DNA from: Candidatus Altimarinota bacterium
GTDB lineage: Bacteria > Patescibacteriota > Gracilibacteria > 1-14-2-50-48-13
DNA: 64,000 nucleotides
Assembly (NCBI GenBank): GCA_046314355.1
Contig: JBKBWQ010000001.1
Coordinates: 928,001 to 992,000, forward strand
Reading direction: 5' to 3'
The translations under genes were made by a program, and so were the position numbers. Positions within the stretch are counted from its first letter, which is position 1; every line of letters starts with the position of its first letter. The notes below the pieces were generated by a model that was not told the DNA's origin, made no database searches, and worked only from the letters and a program-made list of their open reading frames with translations. Of this stretch, positions 10,946 through 31,215 are shown in pieces.

Positions 10946-11644
10946 ATGCTCTTCCCAAAACCTCTAATTGAGGGTGTACTACAAAAACGTTATAAACGCT
11001 TTTTGGGTGATCTTCTCTTAAATAATGAGACAGTTGTAGGAGTACATTGTACCAATACTGGTAGTATGAAAGGAATACTCGCAACTCCTCAAAGAGCCTG
11101 GGTACTTAAAAGTGACAATCTCAAACGTAAACTTCCCTATACTCTCGAGATACTAGAAATCCCTCAAGGAAACATAGGAGTCAATACTCACCGGACAAAT
11201 TATTTAGCTCTTGAAGCATTACAAAATAAACTTATTCCAGAACTAGCGGACATAAACATTTTTCAAACGGAGAAAAAATACGGAACAAATTCAAGAATAG
11301 ACATTCTGGGAATTACCGAAGACAATCAGGAAGTATACATTGAAGTAAAGAATGTGAGTCTCGCAGAAGGAAGAAAAGCACTTTTCCCAGATAGTGTTAC
11401 AGAACGCGGCACAAAACATCTCGAAGAACTCATAAAGATTATTCATGCTGGGAAACGGGCAGTGATGCTTTTTATTGCACAGAGAGAAGATGTCGAGAAC
11501 TTTTCACCTGAATCAGAGATAGATCCTCTTTATGCTGCTACTTTAAAGAAAGCCTTTGATGCAGGCGTAGAAGTCTACGCATATAATTGTAAAGTGACCC
11601 CTTTGGAGATTGTAGTCAGTAAGAGACTCCAAGTGATACTCTAA
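10946..11644 (+). CDS. sfsA: Sugar fermentation stimulation protein SfsA (PD-(D/E)xK fold)
   Basis: RYKRFL, HCTNTGSM, SRID, YIEVKNV and FPDSVTERGTKHLEEL motifs. The ATG at 10946 is preferred over the upstream TTG. Confidence 0.93.
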   Translation: MLFPKPLIEGVLQKRYKRFLGDLLLNNETVVGVHCTNTGSMKGILATPQRAWVLKSDNLKRKLPYTLEILEIPQGNIGVNTHRTNYLALEALQNKLIPELADINIFQTEKKYGTNSRIDILGITEDNQEVYIEVKNVSLAEGRKALFPDSVTERGTKHLEELIKIIHAGKRAVMLFIAQREDVENFSPESEIDPLYAATLKKAFDAGVEVYAYNCKVTPLEIVVSKRLQVIL

Positions 11645-17114: not shown

Positions 17115-18179
17115 CTATAAGCTTTCTTGGGTTTCTTCTTCAGGTAAATTTAAAGTATTCATCACCTTTTCAAATATAAGAAGCATTAATTCTTCTTCAT
17201 TTTCTTCAAACTCATTCATTTTTTCCTGAAAGATTGTATCTTTTTCTTTCATATTTGCATGAAGCATTTCAGTAATCAGATACTTAAGGTGTCTCACATC
17301 CTCTATATTAGTTTTTTTAATAAGTTCTTGGGAAGAAATATTATAAAACGTACGAAGTGTATGAGCGATACTCTGTCTAATCTGAGATATTTTAATGTCG
17401 GGATAGAGCTTATCAAATATCTTCTCAAATACTTCTCTTTTTTGTACTGAAAAAGTTTGTATATCAAAAAGAAAGTGACATAGGTCCTCAGCAAAACTCT
17501 CTTTAAAGTAGAGAAGATATTTACTTTCATCAATAAGCTGTTCGAGAAGTAGAGAATCTTTTAATTGATCTCTAAGATACTTCTCTCGTTCCTCATCGCT
17601 TTTATATGCGACTGCATAAGATGAATGAGTTGGTTCATAGAGATAATTTCTTAAAATATATTCATCCAGATAAGCGGTCCCTTCCTCAGACTCACCTAGA
17701 TGCTTTTCTATTGCGTGTGCCAGTTCATGAAATAAAAGAACTATCTTTTCAGCTTTTTCTTCATTAGTTGTATTTCCTTCTTCAACATATATGGTTAATA
17801 CACCGGTATCAGGAACAAAGCTGCCTTGTTCAAATACTGCCCCATTCTTCTTTATTTCAATTTCATCTATTACTCCTGCTGTTAAGACAGAAAAAAGTGT
17901 GGATTGAAATATATCAATGAATTCTTGTTTTTCTCGAACAGATAGTTGATCATCAATAGAAAGCTTAGATATATTACTATCATTTCTTTCAATATGTATC
18001 GTATAGTCTTTAAATGGTGAGTGCGTCACACGGTAAAGCTTTTTAAGTTCCTTTACTTGATCAGAATCCTCCAGAATTTTTTTAAAATCCACCCCAGAGA
18101 CTTTCGTCAAAGTTTTCAGAAATTCAGGAGAAAACTCAGATTCTAAATTTATTCTTTCTGCAGAAGGTATTATATTCAT
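17115..18179 (-). CDS. Acidic hypothetical protein with a zincin-like HExxH motif
   Basis: FHELAHAIE and a downstream ESFAE. Confidence 0.6.
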   Translation of the reverse strand: MNIIPSAERINLESEFSPEFLKTLTKVSGVDFKKILEDSDQVKELKKLYRVTHSPFKDYTIHIERNDSNISKLSIDDQLSVREKQEFIDIFQSTLFSVLTAGVIDEIEIKKNGAVFEQGSFVPDTGVLTIYVEEGNTTNEEKAEKIVLLFHELAHAIEKHLGESEEGTAYLDEYILRNYLYEPTHSSYAVAYKSDEEREKYLRDQLKDSLLLEQLIDESKYLLYFKESFAEDLCHFLFDIQTFSVQKREVFEKIFDKLYPDIKISQIRQSIAHTLRTFYNISSQELIKKTNIEDVRHLKYLITEMLHANMKEKDTIFQEKMNEFEENEEELMLLIFEKVMNTLNLPEEETQESL

Positions 18180-23917: not shown

Positions 23918-23992
23918 GGCCCCATCATCTAATGGTTAGGATAGAGCCCTCTCACGGCTCAAATCGGGGTTCGAATCCCCGTGGGGTCACCA
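23918..23992 (+). tRNA. tRNA-Glu (anticodon CTC) with encoded CCA; integration target
   Basis: GGCCCCA/TGGGGTC acceptor stem, anticodon arm GAGCC-CTCTCAC-GGCTC, T arm CGGGG-TTCGAAT-CCCCG, 3' ACCA. Confidence 0.96.
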
Positions 23993-25640
23993 ACTGTGAC
24001 ACATTAGAACTAGAAATGTCCTTAAGCCTGAAGTATGGCTTTATTTTTGGTGTTCGAAACTGTATTTCCTGATATGTGGGAGGTGATGAAAACAAAACCT
24101 TAAATAATGGACCGTAGAGAGGCGCATTTTCTTTTTGGGCAAAGATATTAGGAAGGTGTTCGAAGAATTTGTTAGAGAAAGAAATAAGCTCATCTAATTC
24201 CCTCTCACTTAAGTGATCTTCCTCTTTTTGTTTGATAAGGGATTTTTTTTGATTATCTATCTCTTCTATTTTATCTTCAATCATCTTTAGTACAGTAGGA
24301 TTTGAAAGATTCATAAGTTTATTAAATAAACTAACCCGAGTAAGTTCTAACTCCTGTTGGGTATTCTCATAATATTCTTTACTCTTACGTGAGTCTTCAG
24401 TCTTACGTTTCCATACCTTACGCAGTGAGTAATTAAGTACCATAAAATCTATCTTAGTAAAGTTAAGAGATTCAAAGTACTTAAGGATTTCTTTTTCAAA
24501 TGTATCTTTAGAAATACGGAGGAGTTTATGATTTCTATTACAATGATATGCTGGATACCTTGTTCCTGATTTACCTGTTGATGCACTTGCATGAAAAGGT
24601 TTCTGGCACTCAGGACATAAAACTATATTCTTATAGGGATATAGCTCATTTTCTCGCGTCTTTTTCTTAGGAAAGAATTTTGGATCAGTGATAAGTTCAA
24701 TAGTCTTATCTTCATGTAATACTAATATTCTTTTTCCATCCTGTGCAGTATTCCATTGCTCTATACTAATTAGTCCTTCAAATTGAGCTAATACAGGTTT
24801 GTACCATGTCCATTGCTCACATATAATTCCTGCATAAATAGGACGAGAAAGGTATCTTTGAAGTTGTTTAACTTTTAGTTTTGCACCCCCTCTTTGTCCT
24901 TTAATAGTACCTGTTTGCTTATCTCTCACATAGAAGATTCTGCTCTTGTATCCAAGATTATTTACTATTTCTACAATTTGCTTATCCGTATTAATTCCCG
25001 TAGTTTTTAAGTCAAAAATTTTTTTGATGTAATAAGCTTCTGATTCAAGTGGAATAAGTATTGTAACCTTCTGTCCATATTCGTTATATTTTTTTGTAGA
25101 TGCTAAACCATAAGGAGGATTTCTCATCCATAAACCTGATTTTGTTGCAGCAATTTCCGCACCAATAGTACGACATAGTATATTTTTTCTTTCATTTTCA
25201 CTTTCAATAGCTTTTTGTACCTCAGCAGTTTGGCTTGGAGAAATAAGACTCCACGAATAAGACGTACCCAAATGAGCTAGTGCATTTACTTCAGGTTGAA
25301 CAATACTAGTGACGTCAATAATAACTATACCCATTTCTTTGAGCTGATCTTTTATCCTTGTATATCCTCCAACCCCCTCTCTACTCAATCTATCTATAGC
25401 TCTTACAAAAACAGCACTAATATTGTTTTCTTTATTTTTACAAAAAGTTAAAAGATCATTTAGTCGTGGGCGGTCTGATATAGTACCTGTAATAACATCT
25501 GCAAATATAGACTTTATTTCGTATTCTAATTCTTTTGCCTTATAATTACATGCGTTTATTTGATCATTAGTAGAATTCCCTTCCTGATTCTGCTTATCTG
25601 TAGAAACCCGTGCATAGATAACAGCATTTTTCATACTCAA
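23952..25640 (-). CDS. Large serine recombinase (integrase) whose 3' end overlaps the tRNA antisense
   Basis: YARVSTDKQ nucleophile motif, DRLSR, PPYG recombinase domain, CPEC...YHC zinc ribbon and coiled coil. The last codons (VTPRGFEPRFEP*) are the reverse complement of the tRNA 3' half. The ATG at 25634 is an alternative start. Confidence 0.95.
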   Translation of the reverse strand: MSMKNAVIYARVSTDKQNQEGNSTNDQINACNYKAKELEYEIKSIFADVITGTISDRPRLNDLLTFCKNKENNISAVFVRAIDRLSREGVGGYTRIKDQLKEMGIVIIDVTSIVQPEVNALAHLGTSYSWSLISPSQTAEVQKAIESENERKNILCRTIGAEIAATKSGLWMRNPPYGLASTKKYNEYGQKVTILIPLESEAYYIKKIFDLKTTGINTDKQIVEIVNNLGYKSRIFYVRDKQTGTIKGQRGGAKLKVKQLQRYLSRPIYAGIICEQWTWYKPVLAQFEGLISIEQWNTAQDGKRILVLHEDKTIELITDPKFFPKKKTRENELYPYKNIVLCPECQKPFHASASTGKSGTRYPAYHCNRNHKLLRISKDTFEKEILKYFESLNFTKIDFMVLNYSLRKVWKRKTEDSRKSKEYYENTQQELELTRVSLFNKLMNLSNPTVLKMIEDKIEEIDNQKKSLIKQKEEDHLSERELDELISFSNKFFEHLPNIFAQKENAPLYGPLFKVLFSSPPTYQEIQFRTPKIKPYFRLKDISSSNVSQLVTPRGFEPRFEP

Positions 25641-25649
25641 AGTACAATA

Positions 25650-25787
25650 TTATGATTTCTTAAAAGCCTCATAAACAATTTCAGCCAATACTTCAAAATC
25701 ACTTAGCATAAGTGAAATTTGTTCCTCTGTAAGTCCCTTCTTTGTTAAATAATCCTTTATAAGGATTTCTTCATTCATGTGTTCCAT
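25650..25787 (-). CDS. 45-aa acidic protein directly upstream of the integrase; candidate accessory or directionality factor
   Basis: Hand-translated MEHMNEEILIKDYLTKKGLTEEQISLMLSDFEVLAEIVYEAFKKS*; its stop is 9 nt before the integrase start. Below the ORF track cutoff. Confidence 0.65.
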   Translation of the reverse strand: MEHMNEEILIKDYLTKKGLTEEQISLMLSDFEVLAEIVYEAFKKS

Positions 25788-25814
25788 AGTTCAGGTAAGA
25801 TTCACCTGAACTAT
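25786..25814. promoter_or_regulatory. 11-bp inverted repeat overlapping the start of the small ORF-integrase unit
   Basis: ATAGTTCAGGT-aagattc-ACCTGAACTAT. Confidence 0.6.
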
Positions 25815-25869
25815 AGAGAAGACTTTTACAGAAGTTTCAGAACTTTAGATTTAATCTAAAAAATAATAA

Positions 25870-26553
25870 CTACATTAACTTCTTATTAACGAGCGTTGAA
25901 TAAAGCCTAATACTGTTAATCTGTTTCTCAATTTCCTTCACTTCTTTATAAATTATTGTTTCAATACTTGAATAATTCTTTTTAATTTCAAACTCCTTAT
26001 AAATATATTCCAATGCAGTCTTCATAGTCATTCCACCATTCTTTAATTGATATGCACGCAATGCAATATCAAAGCTTCTTCCTTTATCCCATATACGAGT
26101 ATCAAAGAAAAAATGCTGTATGAGTTTTTTCTGCTCATCAATCTCTTTCCACATTTTCCTAAATTCTACACTTGTAATATCGTATGGTACTTGAAGTGTC
26201 ACATAAGGGACCATAGAGGCTACAGGGGCAATAGAAGCTGTACCATTGCCATTGTAACTTGTAGTAGTGAGATGAGTTACAGTATTCAGCACTATTCTTT
26301 CTGGATATTCAGCAATCCTTTTACTCAATAGAGAATAAAAGAACTTGGGTATGTAAAACTCTTTAGCTAACTCAAGAAAAGCTGAAGAAGTTTGATCTAT
26401 CATAAGAGCCTGATCTACTAACCTAAAGTTATACAGTTCCCTATTTTTGAAGCACTTATTCATAGCACTCTCAAAGAGCTTACTCTTATAGAAGAGAGTT
26501 TTGAGATAGATGAATGCACTTCCTCGGGAAACAGATACTATTTTCTTAGACAT
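25870..26553 (-). CDS. Island hypothetical protein with a possible C-terminal HTH
   Basis: 227 aa; ALRAYQLKNGGMTMKTALEYIYKEF is HTH-like (weak match). Confidence 0.6.
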   Translation of the reverse strand: MSKKIVSVSRGSAFIYLKTLFYKSKLFESAMNKCFKNRELYNFRLVDQALMIDQTSSAFLELAKEFYIPKFFYSLLSKRIAEYPERIVLNTVTHLTTTSYNGNGTASIAPVASMVPYVTLQVPYDITSVEFRKMWKEIDEQKKLIQHFFFDTRIWDKGRSFDIALRAYQLKNGGMTMKTALEYIYKEFEIKKNYSSIETIIYKEVKEIEKQINSIRLYSTLVNKKLM

Positions 26554-26598
26554 AAAGATAAGTCAAATGAAGCTGTATTAAATAATTATACATTATTA

Positions 26599-26907
26599 CT
26601 AAAATTTACATTGATAAACCTTTGCATCTTTAGGTTTCTCACAAGAAAAAGAATTTGATTTTTCTATTCCTAAATCAGTCTTGGAATAAAAATTACCTTT
26701 TCTTATTTCAGTATCACCTGACTTTGATGAAGAACAAGCACCCATTCTAAGAGTACTAGGATTTTTTACGACCATATTTATTTGAAACATTACTGGCTCA
26801 CAAGGATTCCCTAGTTTATTTGGTAGGAAGAAAATACCCAGTGATACACAAAGAAATAAGGCAAGAATACCCATACCCACTAATGGGTCCGCAAAGTTGA
26901 TTTTCAT
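26599..26907 (-). CDS. Small membrane-anchored protein with a four-Cys soluble domain
   Basis: ATG at 26907 (MKINFADP), one TM helix, then four Cys residues. Confidence 0.6.
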   Translation of the reverse strand: MKINFADPLVGMGILALFLCVSLGIFFLPNKLGNPCEPVMFQINMVVKNPSTLRMGACSSSKSGDTEIRKGNFYSKTDLGIEKSNSFSCEKPKDAKVYQCKF

Positions 26908-26942
26908 GTTAGAGAATGTAACATAAATAAATAGAGAACTGC

Positions 26943-27090
26943 AAAAAGGGACAACCCTCAACAGATTCTCCCAACTCTAGGTCCCATTTCGGGCTATGAT
27001 GCTGGCTGATGAGAGGTGCCCCTCAGTGTTCAGCATGCACAGCCAATAACTACAAAAGTAGTATTTTAATGGTTTCCTAGTTGGGAGAAT
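26943..27090 (-). ncRNA. Putative structured leader or small RNA in the island
   Basis: 12-bp closing stem ATTCTCCCAACT/AGTTGGGAGAAT with internal hairpins. Minus-strand TTGATC-N16-TATACT immediately upstream and AGGG-ttgt-CCCT-TTTT immediately downstream. Confidence 0.5.
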
Positions 27091-27224
27091 ACTTGGAGTA
27101 TATAGAAAAACCTATCAAGATCAAGCCTAGAGTCAATCACTATAATTCTAAGGAATTTGATAGTCTTTTTTCTGTCACACGTTACAATTCAAATATTATC
27201 TATGATTCATATTAAAAATTATCT

Positions 27225-28172
27225 ATGAAACTTACAGCAAAACTACCTATTAATTTATCTATTCTCGAAGGAAGTACTTATAAAAAAGATATCTACATGG
27301 ATTTTATAAATAGAAAAGTTTTGGTAACGACTACCATAAATTTTGAGCTTAATAAAGAACATACTCAGGAAGCATATAATGTAGGCTTCTTTAATGATGA
27401 TAAAAGCCTAATGGGACAAACAATATTTGAGATAGATGTCGACTTAACAGAAGAGGAAGAAAAATTATTTGAAACTGAGAGATTCAATAAGATAGGATTT
27501 GATGCAAAAATATTTACTTCAGTAGTGAATGAATTAATTGATTTATATAGGTATAAATCTAAACATTGGTGGATTGAACGTATTTATGAAGATCATATAA
27601 AAGATATATTAGTATCATATAAATATAGTAACTTTATGACCGAGGGAGGTTTTGAAGGAGTATACTCTTCAGACCCTAAAGAAAGAGATAGACTTAAAAA
27701 TAGTATCTCTAATGCCTACCTTCAGAATCAGGAAATTCCTATATTCCTTGAATATCTATTACTTGCTAATAAATATCTCCATTACAAACGGTATGACTTA
27801 GTATCTGTTAATATAAATATTGCACTGGAGAGCTTAATTTACTTAATTTCAAAAGAAGTATTAGGTGATGAACGACATGAAAAATTAGTAGAAGGAGAGC
27901 TATGTAAATGCTGTGAAAGACGAATATACCCAAACTTAAATAAGATTACATCAGAAATAGATACGATACTTCATTATGATCACGATGTTAATAAAGATTT
28001 ATTAAAGAAGATTCAACGACCAAAGGATAGTACACTTAGAAATGATATTACACACGGGCATGTAGTATTTTTAAGCAGGAGTCTGAAGTATGAAGAACAT
28101 GCAAATTTACAGTATGACTCTTTTATAAAGCTTATGAAAATTTACAAGATACAAATAAGTGAATACCTCTAA
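27225..28172 (+). CDS. HEPN-domain protein (ApeA-like architecture); candidate defence RNase
   Basis: C-terminal RNDITHG (RxxxxH) preceded by the IALESLI helix typical of HEPN domains. Confidence 0.65.
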   Translation: MKLTAKLPINLSILEGSTYKKDIYMDFINRKVLVTTTINFELNKEHTQEAYNVGFFNDDKSLMGQTIFEIDVDLTEEEEKLFETERFNKIGFDAKIFTSVVNELIDLYRYKSKHWWIERIYEDHIKDILVSYKYSNFMTEGGFEGVYSSDPKERDRLKNSISNAYLQNQEIPIFLEYLLLANKYLHYKRYDLVSVNINIALESLIYLISKEVLGDERHEKLVEGELCKCCERRIYPNLNKITSEIDTILHYDHDVNKDLLKKIQRPKDSTLRNDITHGHVVFLSRSLKYEEHANLQYDSFIKLMKIYKIQISEYL

Positions 28173-28240
28173 TTATTCAAATATAGAATTCAGTACTTAA
28201 ATTTCTTTCTATCATTGATGTAGTATGTTTATATAAAACA

Positions 28241-29020
28241 TTATTCATTAAGCTTATACTTAGTTTGAAGCCGAAAAGTACCAAAAAATTTAATAAATTC
28301 TTCTTTATTTGTATCTATTAATGTGAATAGAGATATTTTCTCATCACTTTTGCATGTTAGTACCTGAATAGTATTTTCTAACATATTTAGAAGAAATACT
28401 GATTTTTGCATTATTCTTTCCCAATTAAAATAAATATAATTTTGAATAATCAGATTTTTTTTGAAATCCTTAGAATAGTACGAAAAAGATGAATTAAAAT
28501 TATTTAACTGAAATGATTCACCCTTATCAGATTGTAGATTTATCACTCCTCCTTGTGAACTTACCATCCTAAATCCATGCTTAAATGCATTGAGTAATTC
28601 AAAGTCTTTTAAATAATCATGAGATATTTCTGATAAGATTGAAAAGTATAAACTTTTCTTTCGATCAAAGTTTTCAATTAGACTTTTATCATTTACACCA
28701 AACACCCAGTTATTAAAGAAATATTTTGTAAATTTATAATAGTTCTTTCTTTCAAGTACTAAATTCAATCTCTTTCTTAGTTGGTTATTACTTAAAAAAA
28801 GATTATTCCACAAATCATTTTCAGTAATAGTAAAAATGTTAATCCAAAAGACTTCTACTAGCTGTAGATGCGTAGTATAAAGTCTTACAGTCCATATCTT
28901 ACGATCTTTTTCGGAGCATGTTTGGAGCTTTTCACTATATAAGTCTAGTGATTCATTCCAACTGGAGAGATCAAAATGTTCGTAATACTCCTTAATACTC
29001 ATTGGAAGCAATTCATCCAT
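28241..29020 (-). CDS. Island hypothetical protein with a HEPN-like NxxKHG motif
   Basis: LLNAFKHG in a helical context. Confidence 0.55.
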   Translation of the reverse strand: MDELLPMSIKEYYEHFDLSSWNESLDLYSEKLQTCSEKDRKIWTVRLYTTHLQLVEVFWINIFTITENDLWNNLFLSNNQLRKRLNLVLERKNYYKFTKYFFNNWVFGVNDKSLIENFDRKKSLYFSILSEISHDYLKDFELLNAFKHGFRMVSSQGGVINLQSDKGESFQLNNFNSSFSYYSKDFKKNLIIQNYIYFNWERIMQKSVFLLNMLENTIQVLTCKSDEKISLFTLIDTNKEEFIKFFGTFRLQTKYKLNE

Positions 29021-29028
29021 AATTTTCG

Positions 29029-29832
29029 TTAGTTTGTCTGAAGTAATATCTGTCCTGAACCATTTAGTTGAGTATTCATTAATAGACTCTTTATCTTTAT
29101 TTGCTCTTGTTTCAGAGCCTCATTCTCTACTTTTAGTTCGTTCATTTCTAAACTAGTAGAATTTTTCATTTGTTCTAATGTCTTAATTCTATTTTGTTGT
29201 TCAATAAATGAAGCGTTATTCTCAATAACAGCTGGATTATTTTTATCTCCAAATGCTAATATAACTGCCCCTAGTAGGATTAACAACAGAGCACCAAATA
29301 AAAATTTAATAATTTCTTCAGGTATCTTAGCCAGTTTCTTACCTTTAATCCAAAACTCAGTTATTAATAGCGATAGTAATACTAGAAAAACTATCCCCCC
29401 AAGCATGATAATAGTTAATCCTCCAATACGCCAAAAATCTGTTACTGCTTTCAGTATCTGAACTTCTATGGAAAAAAATGTAAAGATTGCTACAAAAATA
29501 CCAAGCAGTTCAATCACTCGAATTTTATCATTTTCAATACTATCTTTTTGCTTTTTTAATTCTTGCTTAAATTTTTTATCTTGTATTATTAGAGCTTTGT
29601 CTAATTCAGCTTTAACTTCATTTAGTCTATCTTCTAAATCTCTAATTGCTTTAAGTTTTTCCTGAGTAAGTTGACCAAAAACTGCTTCAATCTTTAATAA
29701 GCTATCTCTCTCAGTTGTAGAAAGAAGAACTCCTGAAGCAATCAGCGTAGGATTTGCAGAATTACCAGAAATCAAGCGATTAGGAGAATTAGGAGATGTG
29801 CCTGCACCAATTATAGGATTGAGCTGAGTCAT
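29029..29832 (-). CDS. Coiled-coil / 3-TM / coiled-coil membrane protein
   Basis: Heptad regions flank three hydrophobic helices (IELLGIFVAIFTFFSIEVQI...). Confidence 0.75.
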   Translation of the reverse strand: MTQLNPIIGAGTSPNSPNRLISGNSANPTLIASGVLLSTTERDSLLKIEAVFGQLTQEKLKAIRDLEDRLNEVKAELDKALIIQDKKFKQELKKQKDSIENDKIRVIELLGIFVAIFTFFSIEVQILKAVTDFWRIGGLTIIMLGGIVFLVLLSLLITEFWIKGKKLAKIPEEIIKFLFGALLLILLGAVILAFGDKNNPAVIENNASFIEQQNRIKTLEQMKNSTSLEMNELKVENEALKQEQIKIKSLLMNTQLNGSGQILLQTN

Positions 29833-29837
29833 AATTG

Positions 29838-30635
29838 CTATACTGTTAAATCAGAAGCTGACACTTTATCGGCGGTCTCGGTAGTTGTAGAAGAGTTTTG
29901 AATTGCTTTAACAAAATCAATACTTTCTTTATCTGTATTATCTAGGAAAGTTAAAAATTCTTTTTCTAAAGTAAGCTTTAGATCATCAGTTGGGAAAGTA
30001 TTTATATCAGTAGATAACAACATCAATCTTTTATTATCAGTTGCTGATACAATCCCAGTATTAACTAAATGAGATTTATTAATAAGAACTTCTTTATCAC
30101 CCCAATTAGTTTTACTCTTAGTTAGAAAGTTTAAGGAAATCTCAGAGTCATCATCAAAAGTTATTGGAAGGTTACTATCGTTAAAGATAAATTTTATTCT
30201 TTCATTTCTATTTTGTATATTATGAGAAATATAAGATGAAATGTAACCTAAATTTTTTATACTTAATTCTTGTTTATTTATAAAATTGAACAGTAACGTA
30301 ACTTTATCACGAAAGTCTTTTTTATAATTTGTTTCATTATCAGGTTGATCTTTTACTGTACTGATATTTTCTTCTAACTCTAGTTTATTACTACTATAAG
30401 TAAAAAAATAATTTATATCTAATCTATCCCTTGTTACCTTAAATTCAAAAGTATTTGGTTTGCTAATTATTAACCGAGGAACTTCAGGTGCAACATCATC
30501 AGGTAGAGGTAATAATAATGGTTTCATCTCATCAAATATAGAGATAAAGTCTGATATATATCTGTCAATTGGAAGAGAGTATATATCTAAAAAGAAAATT
30601 AGTTGTAATGAGGCTAGTCGAAATTCTTCCTTCAT
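29838..30635 (-). CDS. Island hypothetical protein, possibly TIGR04255-like
   Basis: LPLPDDVAPEVPRLII...RDRLDI and LSTDINT patterns; first gene of a tight three-gene unit. Family call is from recollection only. Confidence 0.55.
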   Translation of the reverse strand: MKEEFRLASLQLIFFLDIYSLPIDRYISDFISIFDEMKPLLLPLPDDVAPEVPRLIISKPNTFEFKVTRDRLDINYFFTYSSNKLELEENISTVKDQPDNETNYKKDFRDKVTLLFNFINKQELSIKNLGYISSYISHNIQNRNERIKFIFNDSNLPITFDDDSEISLNFLTKSKTNWGDKEVLINKSHLVNTGIVSATDNKRLMLLSTDINTFPTDDLKLTLEKEFLTFLDNTDKESIDFVKAIQNSSTTTETADKVSASDLTV

Positions 30636-30727
30636 AATATATAGCTTTATATAATTGCATTTATTGAGAACACCCTAGCATAAGAATATATAAATTCATA
30701 CAGAATTTTAGCTATGAGAATGTAAAT

Positions 30728-30805
30728 CTATACATATCTAATATGACCTATTGCTCTCATATCCTCAACAAAAGAGTTCCAACTTACATCCAGTTGGCTC
30801 ACCAT
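30728..30805 (-). CDS. Displaced C-terminal fragment of the serine recombinase at the right junction
   Basis: In frame with the integrase across the TCACCA core: (M/L)VSQLDVSWNSFVEDMRAIGHIRYV*. Confidence 0.7.
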   Translation of the reverse strand: MVSQLDVSWNSFVEDMRAIGHIRYV

Positions 30806-30904
30806 TCTTCGCTTCTCACGAAGCTACGAATGGCACGGCCAGAATGGAATGAATCTTCGCAAGCGAAGATTTTATAATATATAGCGAAGAATGTCCCTCG
30901 TAGC
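30803..30904. repeat. Nested palindromic element, probably the original trailer of tRNA-Glu
   Basis: CATTCTTCGCT/AGCGAAGAATG, GCTTC-tcac-GAAGC, AATCTTCGC-aa-GCGAAGATT and GCTACGA/TCGTAGC. Confidence 0.6.
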
Positions 30905-31215
30905 CTACTCAAAACTGTAAGTTGCTTGTTCATTGTGGCGTAGAGGGATGCCCAATCATAAAGCATTGATGTATTTTTGTACCCTGATGAGTCTATCACA
31001 GTTCTTTTTATAATATACACCGTAAAAAAATTTATCCCTAACTACTAAGTACCCCCACTATCACTCACACTCTGAGCCCTCAGAACACTACTCCCCACAC
31101 GTCCCCTCTTTTAAAAACTCCTTTGTTTTTAATCTGGCTATGCTATACTTCCCCTGTCAAGATACAAACAAATGGTAGAGAAATACCCTCTTACGTTCTC
31201 ACGCCATACTACTAC

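Follow-up and report, generated by a model that had tools for sequence, protein, structure and literature searches.

Serine integrases are the main tools for insertion of large DNA, and in nature they mostly target genes that encode proteins. The locus described here raises the question of whether such an enzyme can take the 3' end of a tRNA gene as its target, and of what becomes of the tRNA and of the enzyme when it does so. The locus lies in a 64,000-nucleotide stretch from a Candidatus Altimarinota bacterium (assembly GCA_046314355.1, contig JBKBWQ010000001.1, positions 928,001 to 992,000), hereafter the window, in which position 1 is the first letter. A 6,812-bp integrative island occupies positions 23993-30804 of the window (one copy of a short shared core counted), between an intact tRNA-Glu(CTC) gene and a structured repeat of about 270 bp, and carries the gene of a large serine recombinase (LSR).

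The organization of this locus makes it very probable that the island was placed between tRNA-Glu(CTC) and its downstream repeat by its own LSR. A preliminary description, made from the sequence alone, had proposed that recombinase, attP and attB together form a complete candidate set; as far as sequence can tell, this is a real LSR set. The junctions are supported because four independent in-silico lines agree: a paralogue of the empty site in the same genome, a dyad in the rebuilt attP that was compared with a null distribution, a reading frame that closes when the island ends are joined, and a relative, L043, that is found in the joined form. What can be observed directly is the anatomy of the sequence, together with the statistics, the paralogue of the empty site and a pattern extending over the whole family.

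Borders of the island and its empty site

The following features define the two borders.

23918-23992, plus strand: tRNA-Glu(CTC), intact, with its CCA encoded (ARAGORN; Rfam RF00005, 59.4 bits); left half (B arm) of attB
23987-23992, plus strand: TCACCA core, attL copy; tRNA positions 71-72, discriminator base and CCA
23987-23988, plus strand: predicted crossover dinucleotide TC (attL)
30799-30804, plus strand: TCACCA core, attR copy
30805-31085, plus strand: B' side of attB; one copy (281 bases) of the ~270-bp structured repeat, beginning TTCTTCGCTTC

ARAGORN calls tRNA-Glu(CTC) as the sole tRNA of the window, and Rfam at E ≤ 1 returned nothing except this tRNA between 23800 and 31400. The core TCACCA, which the preliminary description had placed at both junctions, was verified at both positions. 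Its further claim that only 6 bp are shared, leaving the tRNA intact, also holds, since ARAGORN and Rfam call a whole tRNA and pieces of it elsewhere in the window match over at most 10 nt. The present discriminator base and CCA of the tRNA would originate from the element and, because they are identical to the original ones, the tRNA would remain whole with 6 bp duplicated. The GC content is 0.24-0.35 in the island and 0.36-0.43 in its flanks, and both the island and its recombinase are present as a single copy in the 1.69-Mb genome.

Among the 40 nearest relatives, the left flank matches the tRNA and a short upstream stretch only, and the right flank matches nothing. Because these 40 related genomes are too distant, the organism's own genome stands in for the empty-site comparison. 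Of the TTCTTCGC repeat that lies to the right of the island, BLAST against this genome finds 13 copies that start at its first base, and all 12 of the other 5'-complete copies start at the base after the CCA of a tRNA, by ARAGORN coordinates. The tRNAs preceding them are Leu-CAG, Leu-CAA, Leu-TAA, Leu-TAG, Met (twice), Ser-GGA, Glu-TTC, Arg-CCT, Ala-TGC, Tyr and Cys. The thirteenth copy, that of the window, is parted from tRNA-Glu(CTC) by exactly the island. Furthermore, the unoccupied tRNA-Glu(UUC) with its repeat agrees with the rebuilt attB at 57 of 60 positions (27/30 on the left, 30/30 on the right), so that the predicted empty-site sequence exists as a contiguous paralogue. The tRNA-Arg(CCT) with its repeat agrees at 54 of 60 (25 on the left, 29 on the right), and both loci are candidate secondary attachment sites.

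C1:541143-541217, minus strand: tRNA-Glu(UUC) locus, unoccupied
C1:1170544-1170619: tRNA-Arg(CCT) locus
C1, positions 92113, 206254, 366495, 403188, 541142 and 602116: repeat copies in the own genome
C1, positions 726831, 1107508, 1170620, 1312137, 1354443 and 1483922: further repeat copies in the own genome

The repeat has features of its own. RNAalifold on the 13 copies gives an invariant long-range stem ATTCTTC/GAAGAAT, a hairpin GCTTC..GAAGC in which 3 of the 13 copies have compensatory changes, a terminator-like hairpin with a T-run, in which each pair shows compensatory changes in 1-2 of the 13 copies, and one more hairpin. Five shorter pieces of its 3' part sit 55-80 nt past other tRNAs. 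Neither Rfam nor the 40 relatives gave a match to the repeat, which could be either a tRNA trailer RNA or a miniature element that targets tRNAs.

The attP site was rebuilt in a script by coordinates, joining 30804 to 23993, and the five central dinucleotides of the 6-mer were scored. It measures about 49 bp (30775-30804 followed by 23993-24015) and contains the following parts.

30775-30798, plus strand: P arm of attP
23993-24015, plus strand: P' arm of attP, inside the integrase 3' coding end
30791-30797, plus strand: inner arm CAGTTGG (P)
23990-23996, plus strand: inner arm CCAACTG (P')
30775-30782, plus strand: distal motif AGTTCCAA (P arm)
24004-24011, plus strand: distal motif TTAGAACT, the reverse complement of AGTTCTAA (P' arm)

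The perfect 7-bp arms CAGTTGG/CCAACTG reported earlier are indeed there, for the centre TC only: this centre gives the perfect 7-bp inner inverted repeat together with a 7/8 distal match, one base off register, and the four other centres within the 6-mer give inner runs of 0-1. For the null distribution, 200,000 pseudo-attPs were built from identical 6-mer pairs lying 3-15 kb apart in the same genome. An inner run of at least 7 occurred in 270 of them, a distal 8-mer match of at least 7/8 in 8,992, and both at one centre in 3. The attP dyad is far beyond chance.

The fourth line comes from the recombinase family. When a single genome of each prokaryote species was scanned, 279 of 312 pattern matches were confirmed as relatives, and the best 80 of these loci, nearly all from metagenome-assembled genomes of Patescibacteria by their record titles, were analyzed. 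L043 represents the joined form, and L024, L055, L056 and L045 are integrated relatives. L043 is 92% identical to L024 over 3.8 kb, and its identity to all four ends directly past TGGTGA (TCACCA on the opposite strand), which is also the break point in the window. A stretch of L043 lying 416-544 nt beyond this break matches one at 370-500 nt within the far end of the island at L078, as circular permutation predicts.

A recombinase gene that spans its own attP

The recombinase gene is divided by the island ends into two parts.

23952-25634 (560 aa, ATG) or to 25640 (562 aa, TTG), minus strand: LSR gene, integrated form
30728-30802, minus strand: detached integrase 3' end, 23 codons (30731-30799) and a stop (30728-30730), with a W-N-S-F motif

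The protein is filed as a divergent LSR because of its matches to Pfam Resolvase (PF00239; E 2.9e-17, residues 6-112), to the phrog_95 integrase (E 1.2e-44, residues 147-482) and to the TP901-1 integrase catalytic domain, the best solved relative (E 2.1e-6 alone, 3.3e-14 with the family profile), together with full-length homologues in which key residues are conserved. These homologues are 28-39% identical and align over 95-100% of the length. The motifs Y-x-R-x-S-T and D-R-x-x-R are invariant in the family alignment (R9, S11, R82 and R85), as are C340, C343 and C365; H364 is nearly invariant, and a long charged stretch follows the Cys cluster by eye. Pfam Phage_integrase, the tyrosine-integrase family, has no match among the island ORFs. 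Among deposited phages, three Streptococcus phage integrases come closest, at 24.7% identity; plasmid records gave no match, and the single pattern match among IMG/VR contigs was not confirmed as a relative.

The last 13 codons of the integrated gene are the antisense of the tRNA 3' half, because its stop falls inside the tRNA gene. Read across the join, the ORF encodes 574 aa, compared with 562 aa in the integrated form. The detached tail, W-N-S-F followed by spaced hydrophobic residues, is in frame only when the island ends are joined, and an error of one base in the junction would break this frame. The same motif is found at the same distance from the junction in seven uninterrupted homologues (L043, L068, L084, L090, P0002, P0004 and P0012). 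Because attP lies inside the recombinase 3' end, the circle would encode the 574-aa enzyme with a helix-like W-N tail, and the integrated copy would yield a 562-aa enzyme ending in 13 antisense-tRNA residues.

A similar layout was found in the relatives, whose loci were grouped as follows.

57 of 80 loci: recombinase stop inside an antisense tRNA gene
10 of 80 loci: ORF overlapping an antisense tRNA, with its stop at the edge or beyond
4 of 80 loci: no tRNA called, ORF ending at most 35 nt from the contig end
2 of 80 loci: ORF running off the contig
7 of 80 loci: no tRNA there

The recombinase ORF thus overlaps an antisense tRNA in 67 of the 80 loci. The targets are Glu-TTC (27 loci), Glu-CTC (20), Lys (6), Arg (6), Leu (3) and, at one locus each, Gln, Trp, Gly, Phe and Val, so that 47 of the 67 loci are at tRNA-Glu. 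Far ends were sought as a second copy of the tRNA-end 6-mer upstream of the recombinase. This gave 128 candidates in 46 of the 67 loci, of which 8, one per locus, restore an in-frame W-N or W-K tail and 120 do not. A profile of the tail added four loci (L049, L065, L089 and L022), its other eight matches being its own training set. The 12 relative islands delimited in this way (those four with L072, L034, L098, L030, L069, L071, L101 and L078) measure 3.6-11.4 kb and have shared cores of 4-9 bp, and all have the attP-in-ORF layout. The remaining 55 loci gave no far end in the upstream DNA examined (median 9,991 nt, with 14 loci below 3,000 nt).

Other observations on these loci concern copy number and decay. 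One 698,658-nt Saccharibacteria contig holds at least three copies of the recombinase family, two at L050 and one at L047; the L050 copies, at about 17905-18069 and 11465-11583, lie ~6 kb apart in opposite orientation. At L080 (10001-11731) an in-frame stop falls a few codons before the junction with a tRNA-Gly that heads a cluster of three tRNAs, and this recombinase may be a decaying copy.

Whether the restored tail matters as protein is a separate question. The alternative is that W-N is a mere by-product of TGGAAC, a binding motif of the P arm, and that the peptide downstream of it has no function; we regard this as quite possible, if not the reading that we would choose. At the W-N site Asn is encoded by AAC in 12 of 12 cases, whereas in these 13 recombinase ORFs as a whole AAC accounts for 101 of 338 Asn codons, so that W-N would be at least partly a by-product of the DNA motif, and TGGAAC lies at a fixed 5-bp offset from the tRNA T-loop motif. 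However, when 16 tails were aligned (7 natural, 8 rebuilt and that of the window), W was present in 16/16, the next residue was N, or K in two cases, and an amphipathic pattern followed: hydrophobic residues at i, i+4 and i+7/8 are kept past W-N although the residues themselves vary. The ORF remains open for 15-40 further codons in all 16 tails, and L068, L084 and L090 keep the motif without a tRNA gene at the end of the ORF. The residues after W-N thus look constrained as protein. Of these three homologues, L090 comes from a Flavobacteriales chromosome of 5.9 Mb, and L084 from a contig of 265 kb whose record is titled Alphaproteobacteria.

Present-day mobility of the island, which we can only infer, has to be weighed against the possibility that it arrived as described and is now a fixed relic, with an integrated enzyme that no longer excises. 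We hold this to be possible and rather doubtful. The contigs of X1, a sequencing run that contains the stretch and may be that of the source sample, show no empty-site or circle joint, and depth is equal over the island and its flanks (20.4-21.2); the only joint listed in them, 30923 to 31036, lies within the repeat. The integrated ORF ends in tRNA-antisense residues, and scans of the island ORFs with Pfam, PADLOC and PHROGs gave no family resembling a recombination directionality factor. Against a relic stand the openness of the recombinase ORF and of all cargo ORFs and the fact that contigs drop rare variants, so that those of X1 are uninformative on excision. Furthermore, in 67 of the 80 loci the best tblastn alignment reaches the antisense tRNA, at query residue 539 or later of 562, and alignments of this length make a general decay unlikely.

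Several points weigh against insertion by this recombinase at these sites. The right flank is itself a 13-copy repeat. Relatives, X1 contigs and metagenome scans gave neither an empty tRNA-Glu(CTC) site nor an excised circle; in the metagenome scans, a 27-nt sequence joining the tRNA-Glu end to the repeat start and a 26-nt sequence of P arm and core each had 0 matches. A 32,611-nt X1 contig crosses the left junction, and at the right junction a 3,079-nt contig (27750-30828) passes by only 24 nt, where the bar for bridging was 31 nt. Only 12 of the 67 tRNA-type loci gave a far end, and the tail model had been trained on 8 of them. The protein itself has no match to Pfam Recombinase (PF07508) at E ≤ 0.01, its zinc ribbon (PF13408, residues 336-372) scores 21.4 bits with a cut-off of 25.3, and a profile search of solved structures returned catalytic domains only. 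These two LSR domains are recognized through relatives only: Pfam Recombinase matches 7 of 12 aligned family members, and the zinc ribbon 3 of 12 at E ≤ 0.001. No directionality factor was identified among the cargo with Pfam, PADLOC or PHROGs. Finally, the preliminary description had noted a distal motif on both arms of attP. It is present, as a 7/8 match, but its P' copy AGTTCTAA is not conserved across the family; a lone 7/8 match has a 4.5% chance, and on the integrase-side arm the motif may be real for this element or chance.

Probable recognition of the sites and likely point of exchange

With the core as starting point, the arms of the 12 delimited relatives and of the window were aligned in the outward direction. 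In the Glu-type elements, both P arms have inner parts that resemble RCCAAYTG. Further out stands TGGAAC in the P arm (TGGAAA once) and, in the tRNA arm, TCGAAC (TCGCAC twice, TTGAAC once), which reads as the T-loop sequence GTTCGA on the other strand. T-loop DNA is universal, and is the most conserved piece of every tRNA. The two motifs of the window, predicted to contact the zinc-ribbon domain (ZD), are the following.

23969-23974, plus strand: GTTCGA, T-loop coding DNA (tRNA positions 53-58), predicted B-arm ZD motif, 13-18 bp from the centre
30776-30781, plus strand: GTTCCA (TGGAAC on the minus strand), predicted P-arm ZD motif, 18-23 bp from the centre

In 13/13 delimited elements, and for every tRNA targeted, the distance from the core edge to the P-arm motif exceeds that to the tRNA motif by exactly 5 bp. 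This offset holds for the P and B arms, and the P' and B' arms have no clear motif. For a Listeria integrase, PMC3783163 places the zinc-domain motif at positions 16-24 in attP and 11-19 in attB, a 5-bp inward shift, and the geometry of the window motifs agrees with these ranges. From this likeness we infer that the zinc-ribbon domain would read the outer motif T(G/C)GAAC, as T-loop DNA in attB and as its TGGAAC mimic in the P arm, and that the recombinase domain would read the inner motif RCCAAYTG on both P arms. The P arm also folds on itself (minus strand, 30779-30797: CCAACT-GGATGTA-AGTTGG, followed by a T-rich run), so that its inner and outer motifs are inverted copies of each other.

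The crossover would be a 2-bp exchange, most likely at TC, tRNA positions 71-72. This dinucleotide is favoured because the edge of identity, the dyad centre and the motif distances all fit it. An exchange at CA or AC within the same TCACCA, with the junctions otherwise right, is unlikely. The smallest core among Glu-type elements, GTGA, or TCAC on the tRNA strand, leaves TC, CA and AC possible. However, the dyad of the window exists at the centre TC only, in each of the nine Glu-type elements, the window and eight relatives, identity breaks off directly at the side of TC that faces the tRNA interior, and the ZD-like motifs lie 18-23 (P) and 13-18 (B) from TC, within the published ranges.

TCACCA alone is uninformative, with five copies between 14 and 41 kb of the window, and this recurrence within 27 kb around the site is what could favour a right border elsewhere, or a chance repetition of the 6-mer with a recombinase unconnected with the insertion; such an origin is hardly credible, given that the other rightward copies (35918 and 38412) have no dyad, restored tail or repeat start, that 12/12 repeat copies abut a tRNA CCA, that only 3 of 200,000 null joins match the dyad, that the tail is restored in its exact frame, and that GC falls within the predicted borders.

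Relation to known systems and cargo

The recombinase shares with the A118/LI, Bxb1 and phiC31 serine integrases the resolvase-type catalytic domain with its S-nucleophile motif and, as judged through its relatives, a recombinase region and a Cys-rich zinc-ribbon region. Further common traits are the attP dyad, about 50 bp long, and the few bases around a central dinucleotide in which attP and attB are identical. The outer motif is likewise 5 bp nearer the centre in attB than in attP, as described in PMC3783163. Unlike in those systems, the attB of the island is the extreme 3' end of a tRNA with T-loop DNA as its outer motif, and attP lies inside the recombinase ORF, so that the C-terminus changes upon integration. 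The island differs from described LSR systems, then, in three respects: the tRNA 3'-end target, the T-loop mimic in attP, and the position of attP inside the recombinase ORF. A literature search, for which supplements and subscription journals were outside the scope, gave no account of a serine integrase that has a tRNA 3' end as its attB, or whose gene spans its own attP, and a large LSR survey (PMC10083194) has the word tRNA 0 times in its main text.

Archaeal integrases of the SSV1 type also have attP inside the integrase gene, which integration splits. These are tyrosine recombinases whose hosts are archaeal viruses, and two large parts of the gene result from the split. Functionally, the attP-in-ORF layout has its nearest analogue in the integration-dependent immunity of mycobacteriophages, in which attP lies inside the repressor gene (Broussard et al. 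2013, as related in PMC8092301). There too the episomal and integrated C-termini differ and the integrated product stops at or near attL. In those phages the integrase is a tyrosine recombinase, and the tail removed is an ssrA-like degradation tag (PMC8092301). In the island, by contrast, the gene that is split is the serine recombinase itself and not a repressor.

Tyrosine-integrase islands at tRNA genes also target the tRNA 3' end and leave a functional tRNA after insertion. In a Mycobacterium abscessus set, as given in PMC8092301, their common core of 25-76 bp rebuilds the tRNA 3' end, whereas the island here shares 6 bp (4-9 across the family) and has no tyrosine integrase. An island of that type was rejected as an explanation, there being no Phage_integrase match and no tRNA fragment longer than 10 nt that recurs in the window. 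The tycheposons of Prochlorococcus are, by their description, likewise small tRNA-linked cargo elements; in that report (bioRxiv 10.1101/2020.12.28.424599), 910 of 937 have tyrosine recombinases and the remainder a large serine recombinase.

It is a tentative reading, and one that in its entirety we think doubtful, that these elements form a large and apparently undescribed clade of serine integrases that joins a zinc ribbon reading T-loop DNA, a gene spanning its own attP and a switch by tail swapping. If it is true, reading of the T-loop would let the clade move between different tRNA genes, only the excised circle would yield the full-length enzyme with the W-N helix, and the tail swap would be a built-in switch of directionality, activity or stability. 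This would be a serine-recombinase counterpart of integration-dependent immunity, and possibly a control of directionality without a separate factor. The family offers a natural experiment on the model of a 5-bp zinc-domain shift, and the T-loop motif a ready explanation of retargeting among the Glu, Lys, Arg, Leu, Gln, Trp, Gly, Phe and Val tRNAs. A recombinase gene cut by its own reaction may be a new way to one-way integration. Because the duplication is only 4-9 bp, island finders based on repeats are likely to miss such islands.

Besides the recombinase gene, the DNA between the two core copies contains five solid ORFs and one that is doubtful. A hairpin lies within the recombinase 3' coding region.

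24024-24051, plus strand: terminator-like hairpin and T-run, 32 nt past the tRNA CCA
25870-26553, minus strand: cargo ORF, 227 aa, no known family
27225-28172, plus strand: cargo ORF, 315 aa, no known family
28241-29020, minus strand: cargo ORF, 259 aa, no known family
29029-29832, minus strand: cargo ORF, 267 aa, no known family
29838-30635, minus strand: cargo ORF, 265 aa, no known family

The hairpin may serve as a replacement terminator for the tRNA transcript when the island is integrated. PADLOC returned nothing for the seven island ORFs and PHROGs nothing for the six cargo ORFs; for the cargo, Pfam returned just two weak matches, both under the cut-off. Searches with tblastn gave no match to the cargo in the 80 related loci or elsewhere in the own genome. 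Look-alikes of the 315-aa and 227-aa proteins in the atlas are all annotated 'hypothetical protein', and the RNDITH sequence of the 315-aa protein, considered as a mark of a HEPN domain, found no support.

The cargo of the 12 delimited relatives was more readily assigned. Pfam recognized among their 77 ORFs a DpnII endonuclease, three DNA methylases, a Shedu SduA C-terminal domain, two AbiEii-like AAA_21/AAA_15 ATPases, PLD and SNase nucleases, Fic, HerA, a primase-polymerase and one tyrosine integrase. The family looks like one of small cargo islands rich in defence genes, and not of prophages. Since the cargo of the relatives includes restriction-modification, Shedu and AbiEii-like genes, the recombinase family may be a main vehicle of defence genes in genomes of the Patescibacteria type.

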